The notes under the pieces were generated by a model. It was not told the DNA's origin. It saw only the letters and a list, made by a program, of their open reading frames with translations, and did not search any database. The position numbers and the translations under genes were made by a program. A DNA stretch of 64,000 nt. Origin: Escherichia coli. Its GTDB lineage: Bacteria > Pseudomonadota > Gammaproteobacteria > Enterobacterales > Enterobacteriaceae. This document shows, in pieces, positions 42,241-57,028 of the stretch (position 1 is the stretch's first letter; each line of letters starts with the position of its first letter). The stretch lies in NCBI RefSeq assembly GCF_003334255.1, contig NZ_QOWU01000010.1. One strand, given 5' to 3'.

Positions 42241-42325
42241 TTTTATCATTTAGTGTTTTTTGCTGTTTCATAATGTTTCAGGCTGTGCATTATGTTTTTG
42301 ATTATCAACAGATTTGTGATTTTCC

Positions 42326-42395
42326 TTGTTCCAGCTTGTTTCACGTTGTAGCCCTTTGTGCAACGATCGGTGTAGTCACTGGTGTAGTCACTTTT
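42326..42395 (+). promoter_or_regulatory. Left subterminal repeat block: TTGTTCC..GTTGT motif plus tandem GGTGTAGTCAC x2 (candidate Int arm-type / AlpA sites)
   Basis: TTGTTCCAGCTTGTTTCACGTTGTA lies at 42326-42350 and GGTGTAGTCAC-T-GGTGTAGTCAC at 42369-42391. An imperfect direct copy of the whole block lies at 56969-57028. Confidence 0.55.
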
Positions 42396-44019: not shown

Positions 44020-44208
44020 GTGTTAAGCACTGATCGGTTTATACGTGAAAAAGAATGCGAAAAGCTAACAGGCCTTAGCCGCTCATGCCGCTACCGCCTG
44101 GAAAAGGCCGGACAATTCCCATCACGTCGTAAACTTGGCGGTCGTTCCGTTGGCTGGTCTTTATCCGAGGTTCTGGCCTGGAAGGATAGCTGCAAGGCAG
44201 TTCATTAA
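44020..44208 (+). CDS. alpA: AlpA-family transcriptional regulator / excisionase-like DNA-binding protein
   Basis: 62-aa ORF (GTG start) with REKECEKLTGLSRSCRYRLEKAGQFPSRRKLGGRSVGWSLSEVLAWK. This matches the AlpA/Xis winged-helix pattern (..TGLSRST.YRL...G.FP.P.KLG.RSV.W...EV..W). Confidence 0.85.
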   Translation: MLSTDRFIREKECEKLTGLSRSCRYRLEKAGQFPSRRKLGGRSVGWSLSEVLAWKDSCKAVH

Positions 44209-44353
44209 TCACGCTGGCGGCACACAGCCGCCACACATCAATCATCTGAACACAGAGCTATAACCATGAAGATTGAATATACGCCAGAACGTGGGCGGGG
44301 ATTCGTTCGCCCTGGTGAGACTGGAAAACCACAAAATTGGGGTTTTTCAGGCA

Positions 44354-44383
44354 TAAAAAAAGCGGCCCCGAAATGGAGCCGCC
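44354..44383 (-). terminator. Rho-independent terminator for the leftward (repressor) transcript
   Basis: The minus strand reads GCGGCTCC-atttc-GGGGCCGC followed by T7. Confidence 0.65.
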
Positions 44384-44477
44384 TTTCTGAACAGATAACA
44401 CGCTGCGCCGTTTGTGTGTGTGATCCCAAACATAAGCACGGGGATGATAGCCGCTATCAGGCTGGTGGGCAATGCAA

Positions 44478-44666
44478 TCAGTCTGGTTCAGTTCGTTGCC
44501 ATACCTGCAATGAGCGCTTTTCCCTGTACTCTTTAAGGAATTGCTCAAGGGCAAAAGCACATGGCGCGAATCTTTCTGATTCATGCTCTATCTTTCTGCG
44601 CCGTCTTTTCCGTGCCGGTGATAATGTTTTGGTCAATTCTTTATCGGTCATTGTGTTGTCCTGCAT
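44478..44666 (-). CDS. Hypothetical small basic protein (57-62 aa), second gene of the leftward operon
   Basis: The ORF lies between the RHH gene and the leftward terminator. The alternative start at 44651 (MTDKELTK) has an AGGA 7-8 nt upstream, and an RKRRRRK patch is present. I recognise no homologue. Confidence 0.35.
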   Translation of the reverse strand: MQDNTMTDKELTKTLSPARKRRRRKIEHESERFAPCAFALEQFLKEYREKRSLQVWQRTEPD

Positions 44667-44708
44667 AGCAATGCGCCGTAATACCTCACACCACGGCGCT
44701 GATAGTGA

Positions 44709-45014
44709 TTATTCTGATTCTTTGGCCTTGCGGCGCTGTAGTTCTTCACGAGCGATGGCGATAAGTTGCCCGAGTTCTTCCGTAGCTTTAATACCAATTT
44801 TTTCCACTTGCGCCAATGCATCGAGAGAAGAAATCAGAGGATTTTCACTGCTTCCTTCTGCCTGGCGGCGGGCGATCTCCCCGCGCATGGCGGTTACTAT
44901 GAATCCGGCGTTGCTTTCGCCGTCCAGTTTTACGGATTCCATGCCATCAAAAGCATCATGTGGGATACGAATTGAAATCTGTTTTGATTTGTCGTTGATA
45001 GTGTTTTTTGCCAT
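44709..45014 (-). CDS. Putative ribbon-helix-helix (Arc/CopG-like) repressor of the island
   Basis: Start set at the ATG at 45014, 6 nt from AGGAGA at 45021-45026. The 101-aa protein MAKNTINDKSKQISIRIPHDAFDGMESVKLDGESNAGFIVTAMRGEIARRQ has a beta-strand/helix/helix pattern typical of RHH. It is divergent from the rightward operon. Confidence 0.5.
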   Translation of the reverse strand: MAKNTINDKSKQISIRIPHDAFDGMESVKLDGESNAGFIVTAMRGEIARRQAEGSSENPLISSLDALAQVEKIGIKATEELGQLIAIAREELQRRKAKESE

Positions 45015-45036
45015 GTGCATTCTCCTAAACAAAAGA

Positions 45037-45113
45037 TGTGATTCAGTATACACAAAAAAGAATCACAAAAAACACTTGACCTGTGATTCAGTTGAATTTA
45101 ATTTAAATCACAC
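45037..45113. promoter_or_regulatory. Divergent switch region: two inverted-repeat operators TGTGATT(C)-N15-17-(G)AATCACA flanking a TTGACC(-35)/TAATTT(-10) rightward promoter candidate
   Basis: O1 is TGTGATTC at 45037-45044 paired with GAATCACA at 45060-45067. O2 is TGTGATTC at 45082-45089 paired with AATCACA at 45106-45112. TTGACC at 45076-45081 is spaced 17 bp from TAATTT at 45099-45104. Confidence 0.5.
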
Positions 45114-45201
45114 CTCAGTAAGAGGATGTAAACGACAACGCCCCGAACTGTTTGCGGCAGTAGCGGGGCGTCTAACCAAACCGTTAACAGGAGTAACGAT
45201 T

Positions 45202-45399
45202 ATGGCTGGAACACAGCATACCCCACGTCTGGCGCACACACAAACTGCCTTTGTGTGGCGTTTTCTGGCACTAAGTGCCGGAGAATCTCAAATCATCCAC
45301 GTAACCGCCTGGACGGAACGCGAAGCGCGTAGCCGTTGCCCGTCCGGTTGTGTTGCTGTATTCGCCGCCCGTATTCGTCAGGGGGTGTGCCATGCCTGA
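45202..45399 (+). CDS. Icd-like (P4 host cell-division inhibitor-like) small protein
   Basis: 65-aa ORF preceded by AGGAG. FVWRFLALSAGESQIIHVTAWTEREARSRCPSGCVAVFAARIR fits the Icd-like pattern (F.W.F.A....I.A.SE.EAR......V..FA.R) as I recall it. It is the only plausible part of the 377-aa track ORF. Confidence 0.5.
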   Translation: MAGTQHTPRLAHTQTAFVWRFLALSAGESQIIHVTAWTEREARSRCPSGCVAVFAARIRQGVCHA

Positions 45400-45718: not shown

Positions 45719-46018
45719 ATGAGAACGTATTTATCTGGCTTTACTGCCAGCGGTTATGCACACCCCAAAATTATCCCCGGCGCTATTTATCTGGATAAGA
45801 ACGGTAACAGAGTAACGGTAAAAGAACTGATGTTTGACCGTGTGTATTTTATTCGTGATGGCTATTCATTTCATAGTTCGCTGAACGTGGAGATCTTTAT
45901 TAGCAGATTCCGGCGGGAAATCCCGCTTTCCAGAAATAACCATGTGTCATGTATGGATGTTGATAAAAAACTACAGGAACTGAAAAACATGATTGCCGCG
46001 TGGAGAGAGCAGAAATGA
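45719..46018 (+). CDS. Hypothetical protein, possibly DUF4222-like (99 aa)
   Basis: The core GAIYLDKNGNRVTVKELMFDRVYFIRDGYSF resembles the DUF4222 pattern seen in P4-like islands (recalled from memory). Its stop overlaps the primase start (ATGA). Confidence 0.45.
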   Translation: MRTYLSGFTASGYAHPKIIPGAIYLDKNGNRVTVKELMFDRVYFIRDGYSFHSSLNVEIFISRFRREIPLSRNNHVSCMDVDKKLQELKNMIAAWREQK

Positions 46019-47832
46019 AAAAAGCGCCAAATTTAAAACACCAGCCGCGTGACAAAATGACGGAAGTCATCATTTTTGCGGGTAGTGATGCGTGGGCACA
46101 TGCGAAGCAGTGGCAGGAACAGGACGGGCGACTGGCTGGCGATAACGTGCCACCTGTCTGGCTTGGAGAGCAACAACTTGCCGAACTGGACAACCTGCAA
46201 ATCGTACCGGACGGACGCTATCGCGTGCGTCTCTACCAGGCGGGGTTATTGCGTCCGGGGCTTGTTAATACCATCGGGCAGAAACTGGCAGCGGCAGGTG
46301 TCAGGGATGCTGATTATTACCCTGAAGGAATGCACAGCCAGAAACGGGAGAACTGGCGCGAATATCTGGAACGTGAGCGGGGAGAGCTGGCGGAAAAGAA
46401 AAAGGTAGTTGAACTGCCTGTAAAGAAAAAAGAGCGGGTAAAAGACGATAACGCTTCATCACTGGCGCTTAACCAGATGGGAGCAAGTCAACGCGGCGAA
46501 GTTCTCCTGGCACATTATGGCGGTGAACTGGCGATTCATGCTGACTCTGACACTGTTCACTATTACAACGGCGTTGTATGGGAGCCAGTACAGGATAAAG
46601 AATTACAGCGAGCTATGGCGCAGATTTTCATTGATGCGGAGATCAGCTATTCGCAGAACGCCATTAAATCGGCGGTCGATACCATGAAGTTAAGTTTGCC
46701 TGTAATGGGGAATACAGCCCGTAACCTGATTGGATTCAGTAACGGTGTTTTTGATACCCGGACAGGCGATTTTCGGGAGCATAACAAAAACGACTGGTTG
46801 TTAATTGCCAGTGAATTACCTTTCAGCCCACCAGCAGAGGGGGAAACGCTGGCAACACATGCGCCGAATTTCTGGAAGTGGTTACGCCGTTCGGTGGCTG
46901 AGAATGACCGCAAGGCGGATCGCGTACTGGCTGCATTATTCATGGTGCTGGCGAACCGGTACGACTGGCAGTTATTCATTGAGGTAACAGGTCCAGGGGG
47001 AAGTGGTAAAAGCGTGATGGCGGAGATTTGCACCATGCTGGCGGGTAAGGCCAACACGGTATCGGCAAGCATGAAGGCGCTGGAAGATGCCAGGGAACGC
47101 GCGTTAGTGGTTGGCTTTTCGCTGATTATCATGCCGGATATGACCCGTTACGCTGGTGATGGCGCAGGAATTAAGGCCATTACAGGCGGTGACAAGGTGG
47201 CAATCGACCCGAAGCATAAAGCCCCCTACTCAACACGCATTCAGGCGGTAGTGTTGGCGGTGAACAATAACGCCATGTCATTCAGTGACCGCAGCGGGGG
47301 GATTTCACGTCGTCGGGTGATATTCAATTTTTCGGAGGTTGTACCGGAAAACGAACGCGACCCCATGCTGGCAGAAAAAATAGAAGGAGAGCTGGCGGTT
47401 GTGATTCGCCACCTGCTTACTCGTTTTTCTGACCAGGACGCAGCTAAACGCCTGCTGTATGAGCAGCAGAAATCAGAAGAAGCTCTGGTGATAAAACGCG
47501 AGGGCGATTCGCTGGTGGACTTCTGCGGCTATCTCATGTCGTCGGTAATGTGTGATGGTCTGTTAGTGGGTAATGCCGAAATTATTCCGTTCAGTCCGCG
47601 CAGGTATCTTTATCACGCCTATCTGGCATATATGAGGGCACACGGATTCGGTAAACCTGTAACACTGACGCGCTTCGGTAAAGATATGCCGGGGGCAATG
47701 GCGGAATATGGCAGGGAGTATATGAAACGGAAAACGAAGCACGGTTTGCGTTCAAACGTGACACTGACGGAGGAATCAGAAGACTGGATGCCATCATGTG
47801 TATCGGTCACTAATGACGATAGCAAAAATTAA
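46015..47832 (+). CDS. Replication initiator: primase/helicase of the P4-alpha / D5 NTPase type (PICI pri-rep)
   Basis: About 605 aa with Walker A VTGPGGSGKS and a Walker B-like FSLIIMPDM. The C-terminal half resembles the phage/plasmid primase P4-family domain, and the iteron origin follows immediately. Confidence 0.8.
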   Translation: MKKAPNLKHQPRDKMTEVIIFAGSDAWAHAKQWQEQDGRLAGDNVPPVWLGEQQLAELDNLQIVPDGRYRVRLYQAGLLRPGLVNTIGQKLAAAGVRDADYYPEGMHSQKRENWREYLERERGELAEKKKVVELPVKKKERVKDDNASSLALNQMGASQRGEVLLAHYGGELAIHADSDTVHYYNGVVWEPVQDKELQRAMAQIFIDAEISYSQNAIKSAVDTMKLSLPVMGNTARNLIGFSNGVFDTRTGDFREHNKNDWLLIASELPFSPPAEGETLATHAPNFWKWLRRSVAENDRKADRVLAALFMVLANRYDWQLFIEVTGPGGSGKSVMAEICTMLAGKANTVSASMKALEDARERALVVGFSLIIMPDMTRYAGDGAGIKAITGGDKVAIDPKHKAPYSTRIQAVVLAVNNNAMSFSDRSGGISRRRVIFNFSEVVPENERDPMLAEKIEGELAVVIRHLLTRFSDQDAAKRLLYEQQKSEEALVIKREGDSLVDFCGYLMSSVMCDGLLVGNAEIIPFSPRRYLYHAYLAYMRAHGFGKPVTLTRFGKDMPGAMAEYGREYMKRKTKHGLRSNVTLTEESEDWMPSCVSVTNDDSKN

Positions 47833-48119: not shown

Positions 48120-48365
48120 ATGACAGCGAAGCACACAAAAAAATCACAATCGCACGCCCTTGATTTGACGGAACACTGGTTAAGGGTGTCGATAAAAATC
48201 ATCGACCGCAACGCCGGGGAAGGATATGCGAAAGCACATCCCGAACTGATTAGCTCATTCATGACAACGGCAGCTGCAAACTTTGCCACGCTGACAGAAC
48301 GGGAGATTGCCGAAGCGGAACAGGTGACAACCATCAACGTTAAAACCGGAGAGCAGACAGCATGA
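48120..48365 (+). CDS. Hypothetical protein (81 aa)
   Basis: The ORF's stop overlaps the ssb start (ATGA at 48362-48365). I recognise no family. Confidence 0.5.
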   Translation: MTAKHTKKSQSHALDLTEHWLRVSIKIIDRNAGEGYAKAHPELISSFMTTAAANFATLTEREIAEAEQVTTINVKTGEQTA

Positions 48366-48772
48366 CAGCACAGATAGCAGCTTACGGGCGGCTGGTGGAC
48401 GACCCGCAGGTAAAACAGACCAGTAAGGGCACACCGATGACGCTGGCGCGTATGGCGGTATCGTTGCCATGTAGTCAGGCGCAGGATGGGCAGGCGACGT
48501 TATGGCTATCGGTCATCGCATTTGGTAAGCAGGCCGACTTCCTGGCTAAACATCAAAAAGGCGACGTTGCCAGCGTATCCGGCACGATGCAGGTCAGCCA
48601 GTGGACCGGACAGAACGGGGAAACGCGGCAGGGTTATCAGGTTATTGCAGACAGCGTAATCAGTGCCCGTGCGGCACGTCCTGGCGGGAACAGACGCAAA
48701 ACCACAGGCACACAGGGTAATCAGCCACCAGCGGGAGGCGATGACCCTTACGGTGACGGTATTCCGTTCTGA
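48362..48772 (+). CDS. ssb: Single-stranded DNA-binding protein (short, island-encoded)
   Basis: 136 aa with an OB-fold-like N-terminus (AAYGRLVDDPQVKQTSKGTPMTLARMAV), a Gly/Pro/Gln-rich linker and the acidic tip DDPYGDGIPF typical of bacterial and phage SSBs. Confidence 0.75.
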   Translation: MTAQIAAYGRLVDDPQVKQTSKGTPMTLARMAVSLPCSQAQDGQATLWLSVIAFGKQADFLAKHQKGDVASVSGTMQVSQWTGQNGETRQGYQVIADSVISARAARPGGNRRKTTGTQGNQPPAGGDDPYGDGIPF

Positions 48773-48782
48773 GGGGGTGGCG

Positions 48783-49055
48783 ATGGTACATGACCGCATA
48801 GCGGAAGAACTCGAGGCGAAAGGCTTTTACCGGAGGGCGGCGGCGCGATGGGGTGAAGTCATGCTGCTGGTGGAGACAGACAAGGAACGGCATCAGGTTA
48901 CGATGCGACGGCTGGAATGTTCCAGGAAGGCACAGAAGCCACCGGAGCCGCCGGATAACTTCGGAGACCTGAGAAAGGCAGTAGATCGCACTTATGCTGA
49001 AATGGGTATAGATGGTGTAAGCGATGAAATATGGCGTAATTACCCAGACAGCTAA
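48783..49055 (+). CDS. PerC-family transcriptional activator-like protein (90 aa)
   Basis: The internal ATG at 48783 is preceded by GAGGGGG. MVHDRIAEELEAKGFYRRAAARWGEVML matches the PerC/Pch N-terminal pattern (..AE.LE..G.YRRAA.RW..V) as I recall it. Confidence 0.55.
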   Translation: MVHDRIAEELEAKGFYRRAAARWGEVMLLVETDKERHQVTMRRLECSRKAQKPPEPPDNFGDLRKAVDRTYAEMGIDGVSDEIWRNYPDS

Positions 49056-49060
49056 TCAAC

Positions 49061-49085
49061 AGCCGGAGAAATCCGGCTTTTTTTG
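49061..49085 (+). terminator. Rho-independent terminator (copy 1 of a near-identical pair)
   Basis: AGCCGGA-gaaa-TCCGGCT hairpin followed by T8. Confidence 0.85.
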
Positions 49086-49179
49086 CACCAGTTGAAACGG
49101 TATGGCGCATTACCGGGTTTTCGTCACGGTCAGGCATAGTTACTATCTGAAACAAACAGACACAACAGAGGAAAAAACA

Positions 49180-49404
49180 ATGCCGATGAAATTTGATGAG
49201 ATATTAAAACAGCGTGATAAATACCATGCTGACAACATGGAGACGATGAGCATCAATGATTACCGCGCATTCCTGGAGACGGGCGCACTGATTGAAAAGG
49301 ATCAGCATGGTTTTGTGAGATGTGCTCTGTCCGGTGAAATGCTGGCGGTAAATCCTGAACAGATAGATGCATTGATAGAATTTCTGAAAGGGATCAGGGA
49401 CTGA
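49180..49404 (+). CDS. Hypothetical protein (74 aa) in a terminator-bracketed cassette
   Basis: The ATG at 49180 is preceded by GAGGAAAAAA, giving MPMKFDEILKQRDKYHADNMETMSINDYRAF. The gene is flanked by twin terminators. I recognise no family. Confidence 0.5.
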   Translation: MPMKFDEILKQRDKYHADNMETMSINDYRAFLETGALIEKDQHGFVRCALSGEMLAVNPEQIDALIEFLKGIRD

Positions 49405-49414
49405 GCACGCATAC

Positions 49415-49436
49415 AGCCGGAGCAATCCGGCTTTTT
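49415..49436 (+). terminator. Rho-independent terminator (copy 2)
   Basis: AGCCGGA-gcaa-TCCGGCT hairpin followed by T5. It is identical at 23 of 24 positions to the terminator at 49061. Confidence 0.85.
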
Positions 49437-49456
49437 GTCATTTTTTGTAAATTATT

Positions 49457-49484
49457 TGTTCGTGGTTGTTCCACGTTGTTCACT
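49457..49484 (+). promoter_or_regulatory. Internal copy of the island-end motif (TTGTTCGTGGTTGTTCCACGTTGTTCAC) upstream of the capsid operon
   Basis: It shares TTGTTCCACGTTGTT with 56969-56983 and resembles 42326-42350 and, in inverted orientation, 43695-43740. Confidence 0.45.
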
Positions 49485-49558
49485 GACAGGATCGGCATAT
49501 TTTACCCGAACTGAATCATGAGTATTCTCGCCCGTGGTGCCAGGACGCTGGGGCCACT

Positions 49559-49696
49559 TTCCCGCCTGTTAATGTGCTCGCCAATATTCATTACCAGGCG
49601 GGAAAACGATCGGTGCGATTGCTGATTTCCTTATGAAAAACGGTTGAGTTTTTGCCGCGTCCTGGAGTTCCTTACTTAACCCCAGGACTTTTTTTT
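49559..49696 (+). promoter_or_regulatory. Structured leader of the capsid operon: 10-bp stem-loop plus a terminator-like hairpin ending in T8 directly before the capsid ATG
   Basis: TTCCCGCCTG (49559-49568) pairs with CAGGCGGGAA (49595-49604). GTCCTGG (49659-49665) pairs with CCAGGAC (49682-49688) and is followed by T8 (49689-49696). The only SD-like AGGA (49684-49687) lies inside the descending arm. Confidence 0.55.
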
Positions 49697-50854
49697 ATGC
49701 CGAGAATAATCGAATTACGCCAGCAGAAAACCGCCATTAAAAATCAGATGCGCGACATGCTGGAGAACGCGGAAAAAGAAAACCGCAGCCTTAACGATGC
49801 AGAGGGCGCAAAATTTGACGAATTACGCGCTAAAGCTGAATCCCTCGATAAAGACATTTCCCGCCTTGAAGCCATTGCAGACGAAGAGCGCAGCAAGCCA
49901 GGTAAAAGCAGCCAGACCACTGACCCGGCAGAACTCCGCAACTACATCCTGACAGGTGAAACCCGCGCATTAAGTACAGGCGTTCCCGCTGATGGTGGTT
50001 ATACCGTTATCCCCGAACTGAACACCGAAATCATGCGAATGCTGACGGATGAATCCACCATGCGCCGCATCTGTACCGTGAAGAAAATCAGCAGCAACGA
50101 GTTTAAGCAGCTTGTTTCCGCTGGCGGTGCGACCGTTAACCACGGTGAAGAGGGTAAGACACGCGAACAGACCAGCACCCCGCAGATTAACGAGGTGAGC
50201 ATTAAGCTGTATCCGGTCTATGCGTACCCGCGCACCACACAGGAAATCGTGGATTTTTCCGATGTGGACATCCTTTCATGGCTGACGGGTGAGATTGGCG
50301 ACACCTTCACGGAAACCGAAGAAAGCGATCTGGTTGTGGGCGACGGTGACAAAAAAGCAAAAGGTTTTTTATCCGTACCCCGTGCAGAGAAGAACGACAA
50401 AGAGCGTGATTTTGGTACGTTGCAGGTAATTAAACCTTCCGAATCTCTGGCGTGGACATCTGCGGACCCGCTGATCGACCTGAAATTTGCATTACGTAAA
50501 AAATACCGCAAAAACGCGGTCTGGGTGGTTAACTCCACGACGGCGGCAAAACTTCAGAAGGTGAAGAACGCGAACGGTGATTACATCTGGCGCGACCGTT
50601 TACAGGCGGGTGATCCTGATACGTTGCTGGGCCTTCCGGTCGAATATCTGGAGTTTATGCCTGATAACGTTATTGCCCTGGGTGACTTCAAACGCGGTTA
50701 CTACATTGTTGATCACGAAACAGGTGTTCGCACCAGACCGGACAACCTCACAGAGCCGGGCTTCATCAAAATTTTCACGCAGAAATATTTAGGCGGTGGC
50801 GTGGTGGATTCGAACGCGATCAAGATTCTGGAACTGCCACAGGACGACGATTAA
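49697..50854 (+). CDS. Major capsid protein, HK97 fold/family, with an N-terminal coiled-coil (delta/scaffold-like) domain
   Basis: 385 aa from the ATG at 49697 (the track starts at 49652). The N-terminus IELRQQKTAIKNQMRDMLENAEKENRSLNDAEGAKFDELRAKAESLDKDISRLEAI is coiled-coil. The body (..GGYTVIPELNTEI.. YPRTTQEIVDFSDVDILSWL.. GLPVEYLEFMPD..) is typical of HK97-family capsid proteins, and the protease and portal genes are adjacent. Confidence 0.85.
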   Translation: MPRIIELRQQKTAIKNQMRDMLENAEKENRSLNDAEGAKFDELRAKAESLDKDISRLEAIADEERSKPGKSSQTTDPAELRNYILTGETRALSTGVPADGGYTVIPELNTEIMRMLTDESTMRRICTVKKISSNEFKQLVSAGGATVNHGEEGKTREQTSTPQINEVSIKLYPVYAYPRTTQEIVDFSDVDILSWLTGEIGDTFTETEESDLVVGDGDKKAKGFLSVPRAEKNDKERDFGTLQVIKPSESLAWTSADPLIDLKFALRKKYRKNAVWVVNSTTAAKLQKVKNANGDYIWRDRLQAGDPDTLLGLPVEYLEFMPDNVIALGDFKRGYYIVDHETGVRTRPDNLTEPGFIKIFTQKYLGGGVVDSNAIKILELPQDDD

Positions 50855-50864
50855 CAGCATACAG

Positions 50865-50884
50865 AAGGGGCTTAAAAGCCCCTT
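50865..50884 (+). terminator. Hairpin after the capsid gene (attenuator/terminator candidate)
   Basis: AAGGGGC-ttaaaa-GCCCCTT hairpin followed by TAGTGTTTT. Confidence 0.45.
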
Positions 50885-50893
50885 TAGTGTTTT

Positions 50894-51466
50894 ATGGGTG
50901 AAAAAATTATGAAGAGTATGGAAATCCGGTCATCGGAAATCACCACCAGCGCCAGCAACACGCTTACAGGCTACGTTGTTCGCTGGGATAAGCTTTCAGA
51001 GCTGCTATGGGGGGAGTTTTACGAAAAATTCCAGCGGGGAGCGTTTACTGAATGGCTTGCGGCGGGTAATGACGTTCGCGGCCTGTATGAGCATGACCAC
51101 AGCATGTTGCTGGGGCGTACCCGTTCCGGCACGCTGAAACTGGAAGAGGACGAAACAGGGTTACGCTTTGAACTGACCCCACCGGATACCAGTACAGGGC
51201 GCGACGTTATCGAACTGGTTAAGCGTGGGGACATCTCGGGGATGAGCTTTGGCTTTCGCTCCCGTAAGGATGTATGGGATACCACAACAGATCCATGCGT
51301 GCGCACCGTGCTGGTGGCGGAACTGTACGAAATTACCGTTACATCGGTACCGGCTTACCCCGATTCCGGCGTGGAGCTGGCCCGCCGTTCCCTGTATGAG
51401 CAGCACCCCGAAAAAATGCCGCGTGCGGATAATCGCCGCTGGTGGGTGGATTTAGCGGGGGTGTGA
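50894..51466 (+). CDS. Prohead maturation protease, HK97 family
   Basis: 190 aa (alternative start at 50909). The pattern GYVVRWDKLSE..FYEKFQRGAF....DVRGLYEHDHSMLLGRTRSGTLKLEEDETGLRFEL..PDTSTGRDVIELVKRGDISGMSFGF matches HK97 prohead proteases. Confidence 0.85.
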   Translation: MGEKIMKSMEIRSSEITTSASNTLTGYVVRWDKLSELLWGEFYEKFQRGAFTEWLAAGNDVRGLYEHDHSMLLGRTRSGTLKLEEDETGLRFELTPPDTSTGRDVIELVKRGDISGMSFGFRSRKDVWDTTTDPCVRTVLVAELYEITVTSVPAYPDSGVELARRSLYEQHPEKMPRADNRRWWVDLAGV

Positions 51467-51467
51467 T

Positions 51468-52679
51468 ATGTGGCTTTTCAGAAGAAAAAAAGAGCAGCGC
51501 AGCATGACGCTTGATGAATTTATGGCGCTGGCTGGCACATCGAACACGGGGGCGGGTGAGTACGTATCATCGGGGACAGCGGAATCACTGCCCGCCGTCA
51601 TGAACGCCGTGACGGTCATCTCTGAGGCGGTGGCTACCATGCCGTGTTACCTGTACCTGGTACGCAATGAGAAGGGGAAGGAGGCCCGCGAGTGGCTTGA
51701 TTCTCATCCGGTCGATCACATCCTCAACGAGCGCCCGAACGCGTGGCAGACTCCCTACCAGTTTAAGCGAATGATGATCCGCCACTGCCTGTTAAACGGT
51801 AATGCTTATGCGGTGATTCAGTGGGGGCGTGATGGTTTTCCGGTGGCTTTACATCCTTACCCGCCGCAGTCGGTGAACGTGGAGCAGACAGGCGAACACA
51901 ACTGGCGCTACTGCATCACTGACGCCTACACCGGAAACACCCGCAACTATTTACCGTGGGAGGTTCTCCACCTTCGTTACTCCACGGATGACGGTTTTAT
52001 GGGGCGCTCACCTGTAACCATCTGCCGCGAATCGCTGGGGCTTGGGCTGGCCCAACAACGCCACGGCGCGAGCGTGATGCGTGATGGCATGATGGCGGCA
52101 GGGGTTATCACGTCAGGCGAATGGCTGGACGGCGTGAAGGGCAAACAGGCATTAGCCGCACTGGAACGCTACAAAGGGGCCAGAAACGCCGGAAAAACGC
52201 CCATCCTTGAAGGGGGTATGAGCTATCAGCAGCTGGGCATGAGTAATCAGGATGCTGAATGGCTGGCCTCCCGTCGCTTCACCATTGAAGACATCGCCCG
52301 AATGTTCAACGTCTCGCCGATTTTTCTGCAGGAATACAGCAACAGCACCTACAGCAATTTCAGCGAGGCAAGCCGCGCATTTCTCACCATGACAATGCGC
52401 CCGTGGCTGGCGAACTTTGAGCAGCAGATAAAAAACGCCCTGCTGGTGGCCTCGCCTGTACCTGGTATCCGGTATCAGGTGGAGTTTGACAGCGCGGACC
52501 TGTTACGGGCCACACCTGGCGAACGCTTTGCCACCTATGAACGCGGCATCAAATCCGGCGTTATGTGCCCGAACGAAGCCCGCGAACGTGAAGGGCTGTC
52601 CCCGCGTGATGGTGGTGATGAGTTCAGCCAGGCATGGAAACAGGAAGTAAAAATCAGCGAGGGAGAAAAACCGGAATGA
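51468..52679 (+). CDS. Portal protein, HK97 family
   Basis: 403 aa. The conserved core (..NAYAVIQWG..G..L.P..P..V....DDGFMGRSPV....E..GLGLA......S.M..G......)  and the gene's position next to the protease fit HK97-family portals. Confidence 0.85.
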   Translation: MWLFRRKKEQRSMTLDEFMALAGTSNTGAGEYVSSGTAESLPAVMNAVTVISEAVATMPCYLYLVRNEKGKEAREWLDSHPVDHILNERPNAWQTPYQFKRMMIRHCLLNGNAYAVIQWGRDGFPVALHPYPPQSVNVEQTGEHNWRYCITDAYTGNTRNYLPWEVLHLRYSTDDGFMGRSPVTICRESLGLGLAQQRHGASVMRDGMMAAGVITSGEWLDGVKGKQALAALERYKGARNAGKTPILEGGMSYQQLGMSNQDAEWLASRRFTIEDIARMFNVSPIFLQEYSNSTYSNFSEASRAFLTMTMRPWLANFEQQIKNALLVASPVPGIRYQVEFDSADLLRATPGERFATYERGIKSGVMCPNEAREREGLSPRDGGDEFSQAWKQEVKISEGEKPE

Positions 52680-53014
52680 ACATAGGGCGACTGCGTGACA
52701 GGGTAACGATTCAGACCCTGAAACAGACCAGGGATATAACCGGCGAAATACTCGAAACGTGGGAGGACGGTCACACACTCTGGGCAAGCGTGAACATGAT
52801 CAGCAGCAAGGAGGCCATTTCATCGGGTGCAGAGCTGGCGATTGGTACCGTAAGGATCTGGATACGGTACCGGAAGGACATCAATGCCACCAGCCGGATA
52901 AAGGTCAGTACGGGGCCGCTGGCGGGGCGTGTACTGAATATCATCGGGCAGCCGCTGCCGGATGCCGCCAGGACACGCCTTGAAATTCTTTGTCGTGAGG
53001 GCGCGGAAAAATGA
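52676..53014 (+). CDS. Head-tail joining / head-closure protein (SPP1 gp16-like, PF05521-type)
   Basis: 112 aa from the ATG at 52676, which overlaps the portal stop. The RLRDRVTIQ...G.....W.....WA.V...S..E.......A.....I.IRYR.DI pattern is typical of this family. Confidence 0.65.
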   Translation: MNIGRLRDRVTIQTLKQTRDITGEILETWEDGHTLWASVNMISSKEAISSGAELAIGTVRIWIRYRKDINATSRIKVSTGPLAGRVLNIIGQPLPDAARTRLEILCREGAEK

Positions 53015-53307
53015 CAGAAGAACTTATCACCCTGGAAGAAGTGAAACTCCATTGCCGCATCGATGGCGACGAGGAAGACCAGTTAATCAGCGGATACATC
53101 GCCGCATCGCTTGAGGCGTGCCAGATACACATAGGCAGGCGCTTTGATGACGGGCTGGAGTTCACGCCAGCCATAAAGATTGGCTGCATGATGTTTATCG
53201 CTCACCTGTATGAAAATCGCCAGATTGTCGCGGATAACGCAAAAACACGCGTACCCATGACGATTGGTGCACTCTGGACGGCTTACCGTGATGTGGGGGT
53301 GTACTGA
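53011..53307 (+). CDS. gp6-like head-tail connector / DNA-packaging protein
   Basis: 98 aa. The N-terminus ITLEEVKLHCRIDGDEEDQLISGYIAASLEACQIHIGR matches the Phage_connect_1-type signature. The gene is 4-nt coupled to its neighbours. Confidence 0.65.
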   Translation: MTEELITLEEVKLHCRIDGDEEDQLISGYIAASLEACQIHIGRRFDDGLEFTPAIKIGCMMFIAHLYENRQIVADNAKTRVPMTIGALWTAYRDVGVY

Positions 53308-53747
53308 TGCCGTGGCAACCATTAAGACGATGCACAGAACCAGGCTGTAACAGGCGCGTGAAGTCCGGCAAGTGTGAGGAGCACAGGCGGGCGGCATGGC
53401 GTGCAGAGGATGCCAGACGAGGACACCGCCGCGCGCGTGGGTACTCCAGACAGTGGGACAAATACCGCGCCATGTATCTGAGTAAAAACCCGTTATGCGT
53501 GCGATGCCTTGAGAAGGGGATATATACGCCCGCCGTGGTGGTGGATCACATTATCCCGATTAATGGCGGTGATGATGTTCTCTTCTGGCCCGAATGGAAC
53601 CATCAGCCATTGTGCCAGGCGTGCCATAACCAGAAAACGAAATGGCTTGATCCGGCAACAAAAAGCAAGCGTGCCGCAGGTGGATTTCGTGAAGAGGAAG
53701 AACGGGCCGCTAACCGCAATAACTGGATGTATGACGCTGATGAATGA
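53307..53747 (+). CDS. HNH endonuclease (packaging-associated)
   Basis: 146 aa with CxxC..C Zn-finger-like motifs and the HNH core VVDHIIPINGGDDVLFWPEWNHQPLCQACHNQKT. It sits directly upstream of terS/terL, as in HNH-dependent cos phages. Confidence 0.85.
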   Translation: MPWQPLRRCTEPGCNRRVKSGKCEEHRRAAWRAEDARRGHRRARGYSRQWDKYRAMYLSKNPLCVRCLEKGIYTPAVVVDHIIPINGGDDVLFWPEWNHQPLCQACHNQKTKWLDPATKSKRAAGGFREEEERAANRNNWMYDADE

Positions 53748-53913
53748 GCGGGAACAAAACCGCCTTATCCGTGGACTTATAAGGCAGCGTGACGCATGGA
53801 AGACACAGGAAACAGGGCATAAAGATAAAGCGTCAGGACGCGCAGAACGCATCACAGCGAAGCGATTAACCGACCGTGACCGCGAGGTTATGGAATGTTT
53901 CCGCAATCGCTGA
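53731..53913 (+). CDS. Hypothetical small protein (60 aa) between HNH and terS
   Basis: The ATG at 53731 overlaps the HNH 3' end in another frame, giving MTLMNEREQNRLIRGLIRQRDAWK.... I recognise no family, and it could be spurious. Confidence 0.3.
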   Translation: MTLMNEREQNRLIRGLIRQRDAWKTQETGHKDKASGRAERITAKRLTDRDREVMECFRNR

Positions 53914-54035
53914 TGAGGCTGTATGACGGGGTGGGGGGCGTTTTCAGGACAAACCCGACCCCGCCGGGCACCGACCGCCTCCTCAAATTTTTATGCACGG
54001 GAATTTTTTGAAAAATAATCTGACGAAAAATAAGC
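53914..54035 (+). other. Candidate cos region (GC-rich block followed by an A/T tract) upstream of terS
   Basis: The sequence GACGGGGTGGGGGGCG...CCCGACCCCGCCGGGCACCGACCGCCTCC followed by CAAATTTTTATGCACGGGAATTTTTTGAAAAATAATC is non-coding. The position between HNH and terS is where HK97-like phages carry cos. Confidence 0.35.
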
Positions 54036-54392
54036 ATGGCAAGACCACCGAAAGCCCCCGCCTACCTGGATGACATCGCCGTGAAGCAGTGGCGGGAAAA
54101 ATCGCGGCAGCTTGCGGAACGGGGAGACCTGACCCCCGCCGACTGGAGCAATCTGGAACTGTATTGTGTCAACTACTCCATTTACCGGAAAGCCGTCGCA
54201 GACCTTGCGGCGCGCGGGTTCAGCATTGTTAACAGTCAGGGCGGCGAGAGCAGAAACCCCGCATTAAGCGCGAAATCAGACGCTGAAAGGGTGATGATAA
54301 AAATGGCCTCCTTGCTCGGTTTTGACCCGATAAGCCGCCGTAAAAACCCACCGGAAACAGAAGAAGAGGACGAGCTTGACCGCCTGGAATAA
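54036..54392 (+). CDS. terS: Terminase small subunit, P27 family
   Basis: 118 aa. MARPPKAPAYLDDIAVKQWREKSRQLAERGDLTPADWSNLELYCVNYSIYRKA...NPALSA....MIKMASLLGFDPISRRK matches the P27-family TerS pattern. Confidence 0.85.
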   Translation: MARPPKAPAYLDDIAVKQWREKSRQLAERGDLTPADWSNLELYCVNYSIYRKAVADLAARGFSIVNSQGGESRNPALSAKSDAERVMIKMASLLGFDPISRRKNPPETEEEDELDRLE

Positions 54393-56037
54393 GTACGCAG
54401 AAGACGTAAAAACGGGCAAAATTCAGGCCTGTAAACGGTTAAAACAGGCCGTTAAACGGTACTTTTCGGACCTTAAAAGCCCCCTTTACACGTTCGATCG
54501 TGAGGTTGTGGATCGGTTTATTGCCTTTTCCAGGGTGTGCCCGCACGTAAAAGGGCCGATGCGTGGCAGACCCATTGAGCTGGAGCCGTGGCAGCAGTTC
54601 GCCTTTGCGTGCATCCTCGGCTTTAAGGTTAAGGCCACCGGACGGCGCAAATATACGAGCGCCTTTATCGAAGTGCCGCGCAAAAATGCTAAATCAACGA
54701 CCGCCGCGATTCTGGCTAACTGGTTTCTGATTATGGAGAACGGTCAGCAGGATATTTACACCGCAGCGGTGAGCCGTGACCAGGCGAGGATCGTATTTGA
54801 TGATGCGCGTCAGATGTGCATTTTATCCCGACCGTTACGCAGGCGGGTGAATATTCAGGCGCATAAGGTGATACACCCGAAAACCAACAGCCTGTTAAAG
54901 CCGCTGGCAGCAAAAGCGGCAACTATCGAGGGCACAAACCCCAGTCTTTCTATCGTGGACGAATACCACCTACACCCCGACAACGGCGTATATTCTGCGC
55001 TTGAACTGGGGATGGGGGCACGTCCCGAAGGGCTGTTATTTGCCATTACCACATCGGGAAGTAACGTCGTTTCAGCCTGTAAGCAGCATTATGATTATTG
55101 CTGCCAGATCCTGGACGGCGAAGAGGTTAACGAATCGCTTTTTGTGCTGATTTACGAACTGGACGACGAAAACGAGGTTGATGATCCGGAGATGTGGATA
55201 AAGGCGAACCCTAATATCGATGTTTCCGTGGATCGTGAAAAACTGGCCTCAACCATTCAGAAAGCGCGGGGTATTCCGTCGCAATGGGTGGAGATGATGA
55301 CAAAGCGATTTAATATCTGGTGTCAGGGGACTACCCCGTGGATGGGTAATGGTGCATGGGCTGAGTGTGCCGGAACGTTCACGGAGGAAGATTTACACGG
55401 TCAGGAGTGTTACGCGGGGCTGGACTTATCATCAACCAGCGATATTTCCAGCGTGTGCTATGCCTTTCCGGTCGGTAAAACCATTATGATGATTTCCCGT
55501 CATTATCTGCCGGAGTTCCAGCTACAGAACCCCGCCAATAAAAACCGCGCTGTCTATCGTCAGTGGGCTAAAGCAGGCTGGATACGCACAACGCCTGGCG
55601 ACTGCATTGATTACGACCGGATCAGAGATGACATCATGCAGGACGCGGAGAAATTTAATATCAGGCTGGTGGGCTTTGATACGTGGAACGCCACGCATCT
55701 CAGAACGCAATTACAGGGGGCAGGTTTTGAGGTGGAGCCGTTCCCGCAAACCTACCTCAGATTCAGTCCGGCGGCGAAATCGTTCGAAGTTTTTGTTAAC
55801 CGCAGGGTGATTGTGCATCGTGGCGATCCGGTGTTGTCCTGGTCGATGAGTAACGTCGTGATGCAGAGTGACGCGAACGCCAATATCAAGCCGAACAAGA
55901 AAAAATCACCGAACAAGATAGACCCGAGCGTGGCGGCGCTGATGGCGTTTGGTACATTCCAGGCAGAGCATGAGGATTTTGCTTTTGATATAAGCGACAG
56001 CCACCGCCAGAAACTGGAAGAATTTAGCGGGGTGTAA
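54376..56037 (+). CDS. terL: Terminase large subunit (ATPase/nuclease)
   Basis: 553 aa with a TTG start 7 nt after GAGGA, overlapping the terS end. A Walker A-like VPRKNAKST, a DEYH Walker B/coupling motif (SIVDEYH) and a C-terminal nuclease-like region are present. The size and position are typical of TerL. Confidence 0.85.
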   Translation: MTAWNKYAEDVKTGKIQACKRLKQAVKRYFSDLKSPLYTFDREVVDRFIAFSRVCPHVKGPMRGRPIELEPWQQFAFACILGFKVKATGRRKYTSAFIEVPRKNAKSTTAAILANWFLIMENGQQDIYTAAVSRDQARIVFDDARQMCILSRPLRRRVNIQAHKVIHPKTNSLLKPLAAKAATIEGTNPSLSIVDEYHLHPDNGVYSALELGMGARPEGLLFAITTSGSNVVSACKQHYDYCCQILDGEEVNESLFVLIYELDDENEVDDPEMWIKANPNIDVSVDREKLASTIQKARGIPSQWVEMMTKRFNIWCQGTTPWMGNGAWAECAGTFTEEDLHGQECYAGLDLSSTSDISSVCYAFPVGKTIMMISRHYLPEFQLQNPANKNRAVYRQWAKAGWIRTTPGDCIDYDRIRDDIMQDAEKFNIRLVGFDTWNATHLRTQLQGAGFEVEPFPQTYLRFSPAAKSFEVFVNRRVIVHRGDPVLSWSMSNVVMQSDANANIKPNKKKSPNKIDPSVAALMAFGTFQAEHEDFAFDISDSHRQKLEEFSGV

Positions 56038-56050
56038 TGAGGTCAGCAGC

Positions 56051-56332
56051 ATGACAGAAGCCGAAATAACGGGATTAATCCGCCGCGTTGCCGGAATCAG
56101 CCAGCAGGCTGACGAACAGGCCACGCAGCCGGACAGCGTGACAGCCGAAAACTATGCGCGTGTTGTTGCTGAGGTGATGCGCCGTGATGGTATAGAACTT
56201 AATGGCGTGGATATGCGCAACATACGAACCAGAGTTCTTGAGTTGCTGGCCTACCGTCGCCGCGTGGAGATGTATCGGGAGAAGGAGAAAATAACGTACC
56301 ACTGGAAGAAGCCGGAGCGGTTGCGGCGGTAA
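56051..56332 (+). CDS. Hypothetical protein (93 aa) downstream of terL
   Basis: ORF starting MTEAEITGLIRRVAGISQQADEQ with a basic C-terminus. I recognise no family. Confidence 0.45.
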   Translation: MTEAEITGLIRRVAGISQQADEQATQPDSVTAENYARVVAEVMRRDGIELNGVDMRNIRTRVLELLAYRRRVEMYREKEKITYHWKKPERLRR

Positions 56333-56589
56333 CTGGTTGATATTCCCGACGGACCAAAAATGGGTGGCTACATCCCTCGCTTCTGAGGACTGTTAACAAG
56401 CTGCCTGAAAGACAGTCACAAACTACGAAATTTTCGCAGTTTAATTAATGATCAGCTTAATCGCTAACCCGCTGATATTTTCGGAAACCTCAATTTGAGG
56501 AAGTCGGCGCGGTAACTCGCTGAACTTTAAGCAAAGTGCAAAATTGCGCTTGCTGAATAATCATTATGATTACGCAGATGATTAAGGAA

Positions 56590-56890
56590 TGACCGAAGGC
56601 GGAAATTCGCCTGTGGTTAATGGGGGAGTTGCAGATCTGCAACTCGACCATGAAACTACGGAAACTACCCGTAGTTTGGGTAGTAAGAGTAACACCCAGA
56701 TTTTGGGTCTTACTCGTGATACCCAAATTTGGGGTATCAGTGGCAACCATAACGACTTTCGTTACGGTTGATGCTTTTACCCCATTGGGGGAAAGGTATT
56801 ACGATAATCATAACACCTACCGAACAGGTAAAGCCCACCAGCCTGATTAACGTTTAACCGGAAAAAAATTCCGGTAGGTGGGGATCCCCA
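56590..56890. other. Palindrome-dense non-coding segment (at least 8 consecutive perfect or near-perfect hairpins)
   Basis: GGCG/CGCC lies at about 56598-56611. GAGTTGCAGATCTGCAACTC is a perfect 20-bp palindrome at 56626-56645. AAACTACGG (56653-56661) pairs with CCGTAGTTT (56669-56677). Further elements are ACCCAGATTTTGGGT, GATACCCAAATTTGGGGTATC, AACCATAACGA/TCGTTACGGTT, ACCGGAA-aaaaa-TTCCGGT and TGGGGATCCCCA (56878-56889). Confidence 0.6.
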
Positions 56891-56968
56891 TATCGACATT
56901 AACGCCCCTCATGAATTGGTGCGCTTCCCCCTGGAAAGATGATCCGCCTGTATATTTCTTGTGTCTAT

Positions 56969-57028
56969 TTGTTCCACGTTGTTTCATACAGTGCACCGAA
57001 CGGTGTAGTCACTGGTGTAGTCATTTTG
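56969..57028 (+). promoter_or_regulatory. Right subterminal repeat block (TTGTTCCACGTTGTTTCA ... GGTGTAGTCAC-T-GGTGTAGTCAT)
   Basis: This is an imperfect direct copy of 42326-42395. The tandem 11-mers lie at 57002-57012 and 57014-57024. Confidence 0.55.

Follow-up and report, generated by a model that had tools for sequence, protein, structure and literature searches.

A candidate cos site between the HNH and small-terminase genes of a cf-PICI in tqsA of Escherichia coli

We analyzed a 64,000-nucleotide stretch of Escherichia coli DNA (hereafter, the window) around the region at 53307-56037. This region is most likely where a 14.6-kb capsid-forming phage-inducible chromosomal island (cf-PICI), a phage satellite integrated in tqsA and a sibling of the prototype EcCIEDL933, carries its packaging genes, with the gap upstream of terS as its own cos. 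This non-coding gap is very probably the site at which the island is cut, because its sequence blocks are conserved, it resembles the mapped cos of phage HK97, and the virion-derived record of a sister island ends within it. The same location had been proposed in the initial annotation of the window, and the three lines of evidence bear that proposal out.

Published work on cf-PICIs already covers both their gene order and their exclusive packaging, and the placement of cos sharpens a detail. The published biology of EcCIEDL933 is unchanged by these results, the packaging proteins of the present island being identical or nearly so. The packaging signal is the basis of exclusive packaging in cf-PICIs, which owe their wide spread to self-packaging with only the tails borrowed. 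A prediction of cos at the nucleotide level should be useful for cos-plasmid or cosmid-like delivery in cf-PICI capsids and for the construction of clean deletion mutants, as well as for spotting decayed copies and for setting correct start coordinates of virion-derived records.

Identity of the island and its relation to EcCIEDL933

The class of the island was assigned from its gene content (Pfam and RefSeq), which comprises int, AlpA, primase, SSB, PerC, and a complete set of head and packaging genes. The PICI backbone was recognized by matches to Phage_integrase, Phage_AlpA, the D5_N/Pox_D5 primase, and SSB. Direct repeats were located 14,633 nt apart inside tqsA, within the att-bounded size of about 10-18 kb that characterizes cf-PICIs, and in the identical strain G1/2 the island has a tqsA fragment on either side. 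No tail module or lysis genes were detected between the att sites, either in the RefSeq annotation of strain G1/2 or in a Pfam scan of the other ORFs. The coordinates of the features are summarized in Table 1.

Table 1. Features of the island and of the candidate cos region (positions in the window)
Feature	Position	Strand	Evidence or remark
attL-side direct repeat D2	42319-42394	.	Left island limit, disrupted tqsA; pairs with 56952-57027
attL repeat core, identical 23 nt CGGTGTAGTCACTGGTGTAGTCA	42368-42390		
Tyrosine integrase	42416-43645	+	Pfam Arm-DNA-bind_3, Phage_integrase
AlpA-family regulator	44020-44208	+	Pfam Phage_AlpA, E=5e-18
D5-like primase/helicase, replication module	46000-47832	+	Pfam D5_N, Pox_D5, DUF5906
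HK97-fold major capsid protein (MCP)	49697-50854 (RefSeq start; ORF from 49652)	+	Pfam Phage_capsid, E=2.6e-61
Prohead serine protease (S78)	50894-51466	+	Pfam
Portal protein	51468-52679	+	Pfam
Head closure protein, Hc1, HK97 gp7-like	52676-53014 (Pfam-scanned ORF from 52634)	+	Phage_HCP
Head-tail adaptor, Ad1, HK97 gp6-like	53011-53307	+	Phage_connect_1
HNH endonuclease, HK97 gp74 homologue	53307-53747	+	Pfam HNH
Conserved 60-aa ORF, phrog_3173	53731-53913	+	Annotated in RefSeq; between HNH and gap
Non-coding HNH-terS gap, candidate cos region	53914-54035	+	122 nt
Conserved block A GGGGTGGGGGGCGTTTTCAGGAC	53928-53950	+	Possible right-end (termination-side) signal
Conserved block B CACCGACCGCCTCCTCAAA|TTTTTATGCACGGGAATTTTTTGAAAAATAA	53969-54018	+	Predicted nicking region and predicted TerS-binding side
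Most conserved core	53978-53996	+	14/19 columns invariant, identity 0.93
Small terminase TerS, P27 family (Terminase_4)	54036-54392	+	Pfam
Large terminase TerL, ATPase and nuclease, HK97 gp2 homologue	54376-56037	+	Pfam
Conserved 93-aa ORF after terL, phrog_1561	56051-56332	+	
attR-side direct repeat	56952-57027, core 57001-57023	.	Right island limit

On the + strand, the genes are arranged in the order capsid, protease, portal, head closure, adaptor, HNH, 60-aa ORF, gap, terS, and terL, as published for cf-PICIs. The sequence features on which the initial annotation based its gene order are real; the 60-aa ORF is an addition to it. This ORF is kept in most relatives and is missing from five loci (L148, L157, L158, L161, and L172). 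The gene order recurred in about 170 loci selected by TerS and, among 116 loci selected through the cos core, in nearly every one. Long contigs carrying a TerS of 89% identity were considered as possible true phages and turned out to be islands beside another prophage.

The closest characterized relative is EcCIEDL933 of E. coli O157:H7 EDL933, found in NZ_CP008957. Its head and packaging block shows 97.7% DNA identity to the present island over 48180-56344 (8.2 kb), and the gene order from capsid to terL is the same. TerS (118/118 residues), the small ORF (60/60), MCP, and the adaptor are identical, the MCP even sharing one accession, and the HNH protein and TerL agree at 145/146 and 542/553 residues, respectively. 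The gaps differ at three positions, none of which lies in the conserved core, and AlpA, SSB, and PerC are common to both islands. By contrast, the present island is located in tqsA and EcCIEDL933 between roxA and phoQ, a D5-like primase takes the place of the DUF927 replication protein of EcCIEDL933, and the segment at 44707-45234 is not homologous between the two. Another record considered as the EDL933 island, OR845787 (L003, host ATCC 43895), was assigned to a different cf-PICI lineage by a genome search.

Knockouts of the packaging genes of EcCIEDL933 abolished transfer of the island and left its helper HK106 unaffected, knockouts of the homologous genes of HK106 abolished transfer of the phage and not of the island, and Southern blots showed that packaging of the two is mutually exclusive (Alqurainy et al., bioRxiv 10.1101/2022.09.08.507074). 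In the same study, EcCIEDL933 was induced by HK106, formed small capsids, and needed only the tails of the helper. The need for the packaging-module genes and the mutual exclusion with the helper are thus experimental results in a near-identical prototype, and would apply to the present island by analogy. Helper induction, small capsids, and a need for helper tails alone may likewise be expected, given the 97.7% identity to EcCIEDL933. The proposal in the initial annotation that the island packages itself with its own machinery, to the exclusion of the helper, is supported by these data on its sibling.

Since decayed copies exist, including one in Shigella flexneri without the cos core and the start of terS, the module could be an inactive remnant in the source strain, whose features were inherited and are no longer used. 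This is quite unlikely: the reading frames are all undisrupted and match those of the functional prototype almost throughout, the cos core is intact, and the region is present at an identity of at least 95% in 341 complete E. coli genomes.

Conservation of the gap between HNH and terS

No ORF of at least 50 aa was found across the gap on either strand, in agreement with its initial description as non-coding. The GC content was 0.73 in the left part (53925-53984) and 0.25 in the right part (53985-54035), compared with an island average of 0.51. The strings quoted in the initial annotation are present in the gap, and the reported succession of a GC-rich block and A/T tracts is real.

Conservation in the gap was evaluated in an alignment of 25 diverse relatives. 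The mean pairwise identity of block A was 0.85, compared with 0.57 in the adjacent spacer, and that of block B was 0.86, with 23 of 41 columns invariant. In the stretch preceding the ATG, the identity was 0.58, and at codon positions 1, 2, and 3 of terS it was 0.88, 0.91, and 0.61, respectively. These results indicate that purifying selection acts on the two blocks, which are conserved to the degree of codon positions 1 and 2, and that the non-coding bases beside them vary as third positions do. Block B was retained in Pasteurella islands with a TerS of 66% identity and also in loci without the 60-aa ORF. The core was located 41-63 nt upstream of terS in 112 of 116 IMG/VR loci (those with a detected terS), and almost all IMG/VR loci with the core carried it between hnh and terS. 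Conservation by itself cannot distinguish a cos from some other control site bound by a protein.

A search of 50,697 phage records gave no bona fide phage with a match to the gap sequence, and the HK97 cos was absent from the window. Both results fit the earlier suggestion that the cos is private to the island.

A hairpin or RNA element in the gap was considered and rejected, because the predicted fold was no better than that of shuffled sequences (z = -0.26) and no Rfam family matched. Two inverted repeats (53927-53936/53954-53963 and 53941-53957/53998-54014) were also discarded, as compensating changes were not seen in the relatives.

The blocks might instead control the expression of terS-terL, as an operator, an antiterminator target, or a translational site, with cos located elsewhere, for example at 56.3-57.0 kb. 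The gap immediately precedes terS, conservation does not name the binding protein, and the unannotated segment at 56333-56950 is a 0.6-kb non-coding stretch with a 19-nt palindrome at 56617-56654. However, neither a sigma-70-like promoter nor a terminator was found on the + strand of the gap, which led us to reject a promoter or terminator at this site. In addition, the conserved core stops 40 nt upstream of the ATG, and the variable bases are those around the ribosome-binding site. As described below, the record of the sister island breaks in the gap and not downstream of terL, and the position and motif of the gap match the mapped cos of HK97. Expression control with a cos elsewhere is therefore unlikely, and a cos within the gap is the preferred interpretation.

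Ends of a sister island and predicted cleavage

The record vB_KppS-Ant (LR881103; Townsend et al. 2021, PMC8006926) corresponds to the island of Klebsiella pneumoniae DSM 30104, KpCIDSM30104, and has the same module order as the present island. Its TerS is 83% identical, and both block A and block B are found in its gap. It differs in size (16.5 kb), in the accessory genes that follow terL, and in the host genus. The record, deposited as a phage and called filamentous, not a satellite, is a SPAdes assembly of a Nextera XT library made from phage material propagated on K. pneumoniae DSM 30104 (PMC8006926).

The linear record opens 22 nt upstream of terS and closes 37 nt downstream of the small ORF, which is exactly the layout, from terS-terL to HNH, that the initial annotation had expected of a linear genome. 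When compared with the chromosome of ATCC 13883, it showed 100% identity on both sides of a missing segment of exactly 69 nt, centered on the conserved CAAA|TTTTT, with 37 nt to the left and 32 nt to the right of the predicted junction. Termini are lost in Nextera libraries. These results indirectly place the genome ends of the sister island inside the HNH-terS gap, as judged from one assembly of a related island whose ends were left unanalyzed by its authors.

In several satellites (pac SaPIs), the small terminase initiates headful packaging, and the island could similarly be packaged from near terS into permuted, terminally redundant DNA. This is very improbable. The pairing of HNH with an HK97-type TerL is characteristic of cos packaging that depends on HNH, and permuted DNA would yield a circular assembly whose ends overlap rather than a linear record without a fixed 69 nt. 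Moreover, cohesive-end concatemers have been described for KpCIDSM30104, the DNA of which gives a high-molecular-weight band ascribed to cohesive cos ends (He et al., bioRxiv 10.1101/2025.02.11.637232). The size of the unit, 14.6 kb, is also in keeping with a T=4 head, as reported for the prototype EcCIEDL933 (15.4 kb).

No pile-up of contig ends was observed at the site among 80 metagenome loci, which counts against the assignment; the loci from the TerS-based IMG/VR and metagenome scans were integrated or read-through copies. Only one contig in those scans started near terS (L138, 2 nt before the gene), and another (L111) started 123 nt before it. No mapped cos of a cf-PICI and no termini of the present island or of EcCIEDL933 were found in the literature searched, which included the 2022 preprint, and the EcCIEDL933 papers searched (bioRxiv 10.1101/2022.09.08.507074 and 10.1101/2025.02.11.637232) do not give the nucleotide position of cos.

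With cos in the gap, the following course of packaging can be proposed. Upon induction, the island would be excised, circularized, and replicated, and its own HK97-fold capsid protein, protease, portal, closure, and adaptor would form small heads. The P27-family TerS would bind the gap on its A/T-tract side (about 53988-54018), and TerL together with the gp74-like HNH would introduce a staggered cut in the conserved core. By analogy with HK97, the top-strand nick is predicted between 53987|53988, leaving a 10-nt 3' overhang CCTCCTCAAA at 53978-53987. Packaging would begin at the terS end, run past terL, att, and int and then the replication and head genes, and reach HNH and the small ORF last, stopping at the next cos, after which the filled heads would require only the tails of the helper phage. 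We infer the role of block A, the TerS-binding block, the overhang, and the exact nick positions.

As a tentative extension, which we consider rather doubtful, the cos of cf-PICIs may be composite, combining a nicking core inherited from phages with an HK97-type TerL and HNH with satellite-specific recognition, and the 60-aa ORF may encode a fourth packaging factor. If so, TerS would recognize block B on its T-tract side, block A with its G-run would serve as the termination-side signal, and the exclusivity of packaging would rest only on TerS and its site and not on the cut site. A metagenomic contig with the canonical phage gene order (L282) carries an identical 20-nt core 25 nt before a P27-family terS. 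No description of a composite cos, or of such a role for the 60-aa ORF, was found in the cf-PICI literature searched.

Comparison with HK97 and other packaging systems

In HK97 (PMC11331095, PMC9410871), the HNH gene adjoins cos and is followed by terS-terL, an arrangement shared by the candidate cos of the present island. The island HNH showed 39% identity to HK97 gp74 (E=2e-19) and its TerL 27% identity to gp2 (E=3e-47), which, with HNH lying beside terS-terL, is the signature of HNH-dependent cos systems of the HK97 type. By contrast, BLASTP revealed no similarity between the island TerS and gp1, and the two belong to different families (Terminase_4 for the island protein and no Pfam match for gp1). 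Packaging of the island probably works like the HK97 system with a different recognition subunit. HK97-fold head genes are common to both, and the island has no tail or lysis genes. The head genes are located upstream of HNH in the island and downstream of terL in HK97, where their order is portal-protease-capsid-gp6 (Phage_connect_1)-gp7 (Phage_HCP), compared with capsid-protease-portal-HCP-connect_1 in the island. The initial annotation had described the island as a rotated HK97 order; the displacement of the head genes from terS-terL stands, but portal and capsid, as well as adaptor and closure, are also swapped, so the rotation is approximate only.

The HK97 record ends with ...GACCGCCGCCAAA and starts with GTTTGAATTT, giving the junction GACCGCCGCCAAA|GTTTGAATTT...CCCGATTTTTTT 49 nt before terS, and the junction predicted in the island, GACCGCCTCCTCAAA|TTTTTATGCACGGGAATTTTTT, lies 48 nt before terS. 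A G-run, a GACCGCC..CAAA junction, and a T-tract, located about 49 nt before terS, are common to both, and the right end of HK97 also carries a G-run at a distance similar to that of block A. The sequence to the right of the junction differs. The global DNA alignment of the gap to the HK97 cos was modest and is supporting evidence rather than proof, because 35 of 2000 block-preserving shuffles scored equally well. HK97 TerS binds +15 to +29, a segment that includes an A-tract, and cleavage leaves a 10-nt 3' overhang; transfer of the TerS-site position to the island is an analogy only, because the island TerS has no detectable relation to gp1.

Other satellites solve packaging differently. Classical E. 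coli PICIs with Rpp (EcCICFT073), cos SaPIs (SaPIbov5), and P4 carry the cos of the helper or retarget the helper TerS. The present island shares the int-alpA-replication backbone, the satellite lifestyle, and the small size seen in classical E. coli PICIs. Unlike the terminase-borrowing satellites, it has its own HNH, TerS, TerL, and head, together with a candidate cos that matched no bona fide phage among the records searched.

Gene content and limits of the island

The window is E. coli chromosome, and the 2,731-nt query was 100% identical in strains G1/2, G6/7, and G8; across 5,426 complete genomes of the species, 534 contained a match. Genes for a tyrosine integrase, an AlpA regulator, a DUF4222 protein, a D5-like primase, SSB, and PerC, together with the head and packaging genes, lay between the direct repeats, and neither tail nor lysis genes were found there by RefSeq annotation or Pfam. 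The element fits the published definition of a capsid-forming phage-inducible chromosomal island (cf-PICI). The gap between the small ORF and terS contained no ORF of at least 50 aa on either strand, and its GC content was 0.73 at 53925-53984 and 0.25 at 53985-54035, with an island-wide value of 0.51. The Pfam-based gene order, the ORF-free gap, and the GC contrast thus confirm the sequence-level observations of the initial annotation, namely the gene order and a non-coding gap that is GC-rich and then A/T-rich.

Packaging genes, gap elements, and other features of the island (window positions)
Feature	Position	Strand	Basis or remark
Major capsid protein, S78 prohead protease, portal		+	Pfam
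Phage_HCP head-closure protein, Phage_connect_1 adaptor		+	Pfam
HNH endonuclease	53307-53747	+	Pfam
60-aa ORF, phrog_3173 (unknown function)	53731-53913		RefSeq annotation; overlaps HNH end
Gap	53914-54035		122 nt
Block A	53926-53951
Block B	53969-54009
Core	53978-53996
TerS, Terminase_4/P27-family	54036-54392	+	Pfam
TerL, ATPase and nuclease domains	54376-56037	+	Pfam
Direct repeats	42319-42394, 56952-57027		23-nt identical core, 14,633 nt apart, within disrupted tqsA
~35-nt motif (..TTGTTCCACGTTGTT)	42316-42350, 49446-49480, 56949-56983		beside attL, just 5' of capsid operon, beside attR
Terminator-like hairpin then T-run (ACAGCCGGAGAAATCCGGCTTTTT), two copies	49059-49082, 49413-49436		flank small ORF upstream of capsid gene
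377-aa ORF	44266-45399		one ORF, no Pfam match
Unannotated stretch, ~0.6 kb	56333-56950		last ORF to attR; several short palindromes, e.g. 56617-56654

The recurring ~35-nt motif could represent integrase arm-type sites or regulator-binding sites. At the place of the 377-aa ORF, G1/2 and EDL933 carry two genes, for a 247-aa hypothetical protein and an Icd-like inhibitor. Over the stretch from int to HNH, the window and G1/2 differed by 167 nt, and their packaging regions were identical. The unannotated stretch before attR matched no Rfam family.

Constraint on the gap and its likeness to the HK97 cos

Relatives were gathered through TerS in IMG/VR and metagenomes and, in a set of genomes with one per species, by a block-A pattern. 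The alignment set comprised 25 sequences at <93% identity, window included, and block B was absent from every search pattern used for them. Among these 25 sequences, mean pairwise identity was 0.85 in block A, 0.86 in block B, and 0.93 in the core, where 14 of the 19 columns were invariant. The corresponding values were 0.57 in the 17-nt inter-block spacer, 0.58 in the last 26 nt before the ATG, and 0.88, 0.91, and 0.61 at terS codon positions 1, 2, and 3, respectively. Both blocks thus change as slowly as positions under protein constraint, and the remaining gap changes in the manner of synonymous sites. Block B was also conserved where the small ORF is missing and in Pasteurella islands, where TerS identity is only 66%. 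In a separate scan of IMG/VR, the 20-nt core was found at 116 loci; it almost always followed hnh (or the small ORF, where present) and preceded terS, and it lay 41-63 nt upstream of terS in the 112 loci where that gene was detected.

Within the gap, no + strand promoter, terminator, or Rfam family was found, and its fold was no better than those of shuffles. Small inverted repeats, considered as a structural element, showed no compensating changes in relatives. In Shigella flexneri SFBU1023 (CP182556.1; locus L087, ~3076-3130), two CCCCGCC repeats, located in the gap and within terS, respectively, flank a deletion that removes the putative cos core and the terS start, leaving a decayed, presumably immobile island copy.

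Among HNH-dependent 3' cos packaging systems, HK97 serves as the reference, and its GenBank record begins and ends at the cut (PMC9410871, PMC11331095). The cut leaves a 10-nt 3' overhang, given as 12 nt in one passage of PMC9410871. HK97 TerS binds at +15 to +29, A-tract included, and gp74 stimulates cleavage (PMC9410871, PMC11331095). The HK97 record ends ...GGGCAGGGGGGGGGATC...ATGACCGCCGCCAAA and starts GTTTGAATTTAACGCTAACCCGATTTTTTTAG, with terS from nt 50; the island reads GGGGTGGGGGGCG...CACCGACCGCCTCCTCAAA|TTTTTATGCACGGGAATTTTTTGAAAAA, with 48 nt from the marked junction to the terS start. The island TerL and HNH were homologous to HK97 gp2 (TerL; 27% identity, E=3e-47) and gp74 (HNH; 39% identity, E=2e-19), whereas BLASTP and Pfam detected no relation between the island TerS and gp1 (TerS). 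Homologous cutting proteins and a site-recognising TerS without detectable relation to gp1 match the common junction motif and the differing sequence to its right. Because 35 of 2000 block-preserving shuffles scored equally well, the DNA resemblance taken alone is modest and was counted as support only.

Ends of a sister island and assignment of the probable cos

The record 'phage vB_KppS-Ant' (LR881103, 16,548 bp) is a de novo SPAdes assembly of Nextera XT reads, obtained from phage prepared on K. pneumoniae DSM 30104; its authors reported >99% identity to the host chromosome and named it an induced, filamentous prophage (PMC8006926). Its gene order is terS, terL, ..., integrase, primase, capsid, protease, portal, closure, adaptor, HNH, small ORF. 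It is a cf-PICI, not the filamentous ssDNA prophage of its paper, and presumably is KpCIDSM30104 of He et al. Its GenBank title (L002; LR881103.1, 1-16548; also L091, 3756-3824) reads 'Escherichia phage vB_KppS-Ant', and its 765-aa gene 3' of terL is annotated 'tape measure protein', a doubtful label given a tail-less satellite.

The initial annotation had expected cleavage in the gap to give a linear form starting with terS-terL and ending with HNH, and the layout of this sister-island record agrees exactly. On both sides of the HNH-terS gap, the record was 100% identical to the chromosome of K. pneumoniae ATCC 13883 (type strain = DSM 30104), and exactly 69 nt of the gap were missing from it, of which 37 nt lie left of the conserved CAAA|TTTTT junction and 32 nt right of it. 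Terminal sequence loss is known for transposase libraries. The absence of a fixed internal piece argues against a circular or permuted genome, which would assemble with overlapping ends. These ends are strong circumstantial evidence for a cos in the gap, short of proof because only one record shows them and the island is a related one (TerS 83% identical). The alternative location named earlier for the ends, a non-coding stretch at 56.3-57.0 kb with a 19-nt palindrome, is unlikely, as the record is unbroken at the equivalent place.

Selective constraint on blocks A and B, likeness to the mapped HK97 site, and the vB_KppS-Ant ends are three independent lines that support the cos originally proposed in the HNH-terS gap. 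The gap is very probably the island's cos, where TerS would bind the conserved right half of block B and TerL and HNH would nick inside the core. HK97 analogy predicts a top-strand nick at 53987|53988 with the overhang CCTCCTCAAA, and the chance that the nick lies within a few bases of this position is about even. The precise nick position, the overhang, and what block A does are inferred. Packaging would run from terS to HNH as one 14.6-kb unit, a length in keeping with the T=4 head that the prototype EcCIEDL933 is reported to form (bioRxiv 10.1101/2025.02.11.637232).

Comparison with phages and with EcCIEDL933

The cos had also been described as private. The core occurred once within the window, and the HK97 cos was absent from it. 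Against 50,697 phage records, the cf-PICI-like matches of the gap were an unverified 1.6-kb fragment and Pasteurella Pmp7/Pmp8, and the others were at chance level. To that extent the description holds; however, the core was also present in a phage-ordered metagenomic contig (L282, IMGVR_UViG_3300020048_001569; P27-family terS, terL of 30% identity, portal, protease, capsid). Its first 600 nt (terS orientation) contained the same 20-nt core CCTCAAATTTTTTCGCACGG, 25 nt upstream of terS, with block A (G-run) and the T-tract both absent. The core may therefore predate the satellites, and this contig may represent a phage-borne relative of the satellite cos. In long IMG/VR contigs from the group whose TerS is 89% identical (L183, L251, and others), a cf-PICI directly adjoins another prophage segment in tandem, with a second terL (30% identity), then portal and protease, within ~1 kb of the island's terL.

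HK97 is ordered terS, terL, portal, protease, capsid, gp6 (Phage_connect_1), gp7 (Phage_HCP), tail genes, ..., gp74, cos, whereas the island opened at cos reads terS, terL, ORF, att, int, replication genes, capsid, protease, portal, HCP, connect_1, HNH, small ORF. In HK97 the head genes thus directly follow terL, whereas in the island they have moved to a place directly before HNH, and inside the head block portal and capsid are swapped, as are adaptor and closure. The 'circular permutation' of the initial annotation is thus a rearrangement, not a rotation. The cf-PICI paper states the proteobacterial order as capsid-protease-portal-head connectors, then hnh-terS-terL, and an organisation differing from the helper's is already published (bioRxiv 10.1101/2022.09.08.507074).

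EcCIEDL933 was placed in the roxA-phoQ interval of the EDL933 chromosome and was 97.7% identical to window 48180-56344. Identical residues numbered 118/118 in TerS, 60/60 in the small ORF, 145/146 in HNH, and 542/553 in TerL, and the gaps differed at three positions, none inside the conserved core. The two elements differ in attachment site (roxA-phoQ versus tqsA), in replication protein (DUF927 in EcCIEDL933, D5-like primase in the island), and in segment 44707-45234, which is replaced in the island and has no EDL933 counterpart. A resident prophage with its own HNH, terS, and terL in canonical phage order lies ~30 kb from EcCIEDL933 (L292 24209-27085; EDL933 chromosome 1,649,209-1,652,085). 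Induction of EDL933's own prophages gave only few transductants (EcCIEDL933 preprint).

With helper phage HK106, mutation of each packaging-module gene of EcCIEDL933 abolished island transfer, and mutation of hypothetical gene 1792 severely reduced but did not abolish it; island replication and phage titres were unchanged in the packaging mutants (bioRxiv 10.1101/2022.09.08.507074). Mutation of the homologous HK106 genes abolished phage transfer and kept island transfer, tail mutants abolished both, and Southern blots showed phage DNA solely in large capsids and island DNA solely in small capsids (same preprint). Packaged KpCIDSM30104 DNA gave a high-molecular-weight band, read by He et al. 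as cohesive-cos-end concatemers (bioRxiv 10.1101/2025.02.11.637232). Self-contained packaging to the exclusion of the helper was thus rightly proposed and is not new, having been shown in EcCIEDL933 for identical or near-identical proteins. In the literature covered here, which includes the EcCIEDL933 work in its preprint version, no cf-PICI cos is given a nucleotide position. The sole addition is a prediction of cos at nucleotide level from sequence comparison, together with one indirect indication of the termini; the system itself is the packaging module already known from cf-PICIs, in an island that nearly copies the prototype.
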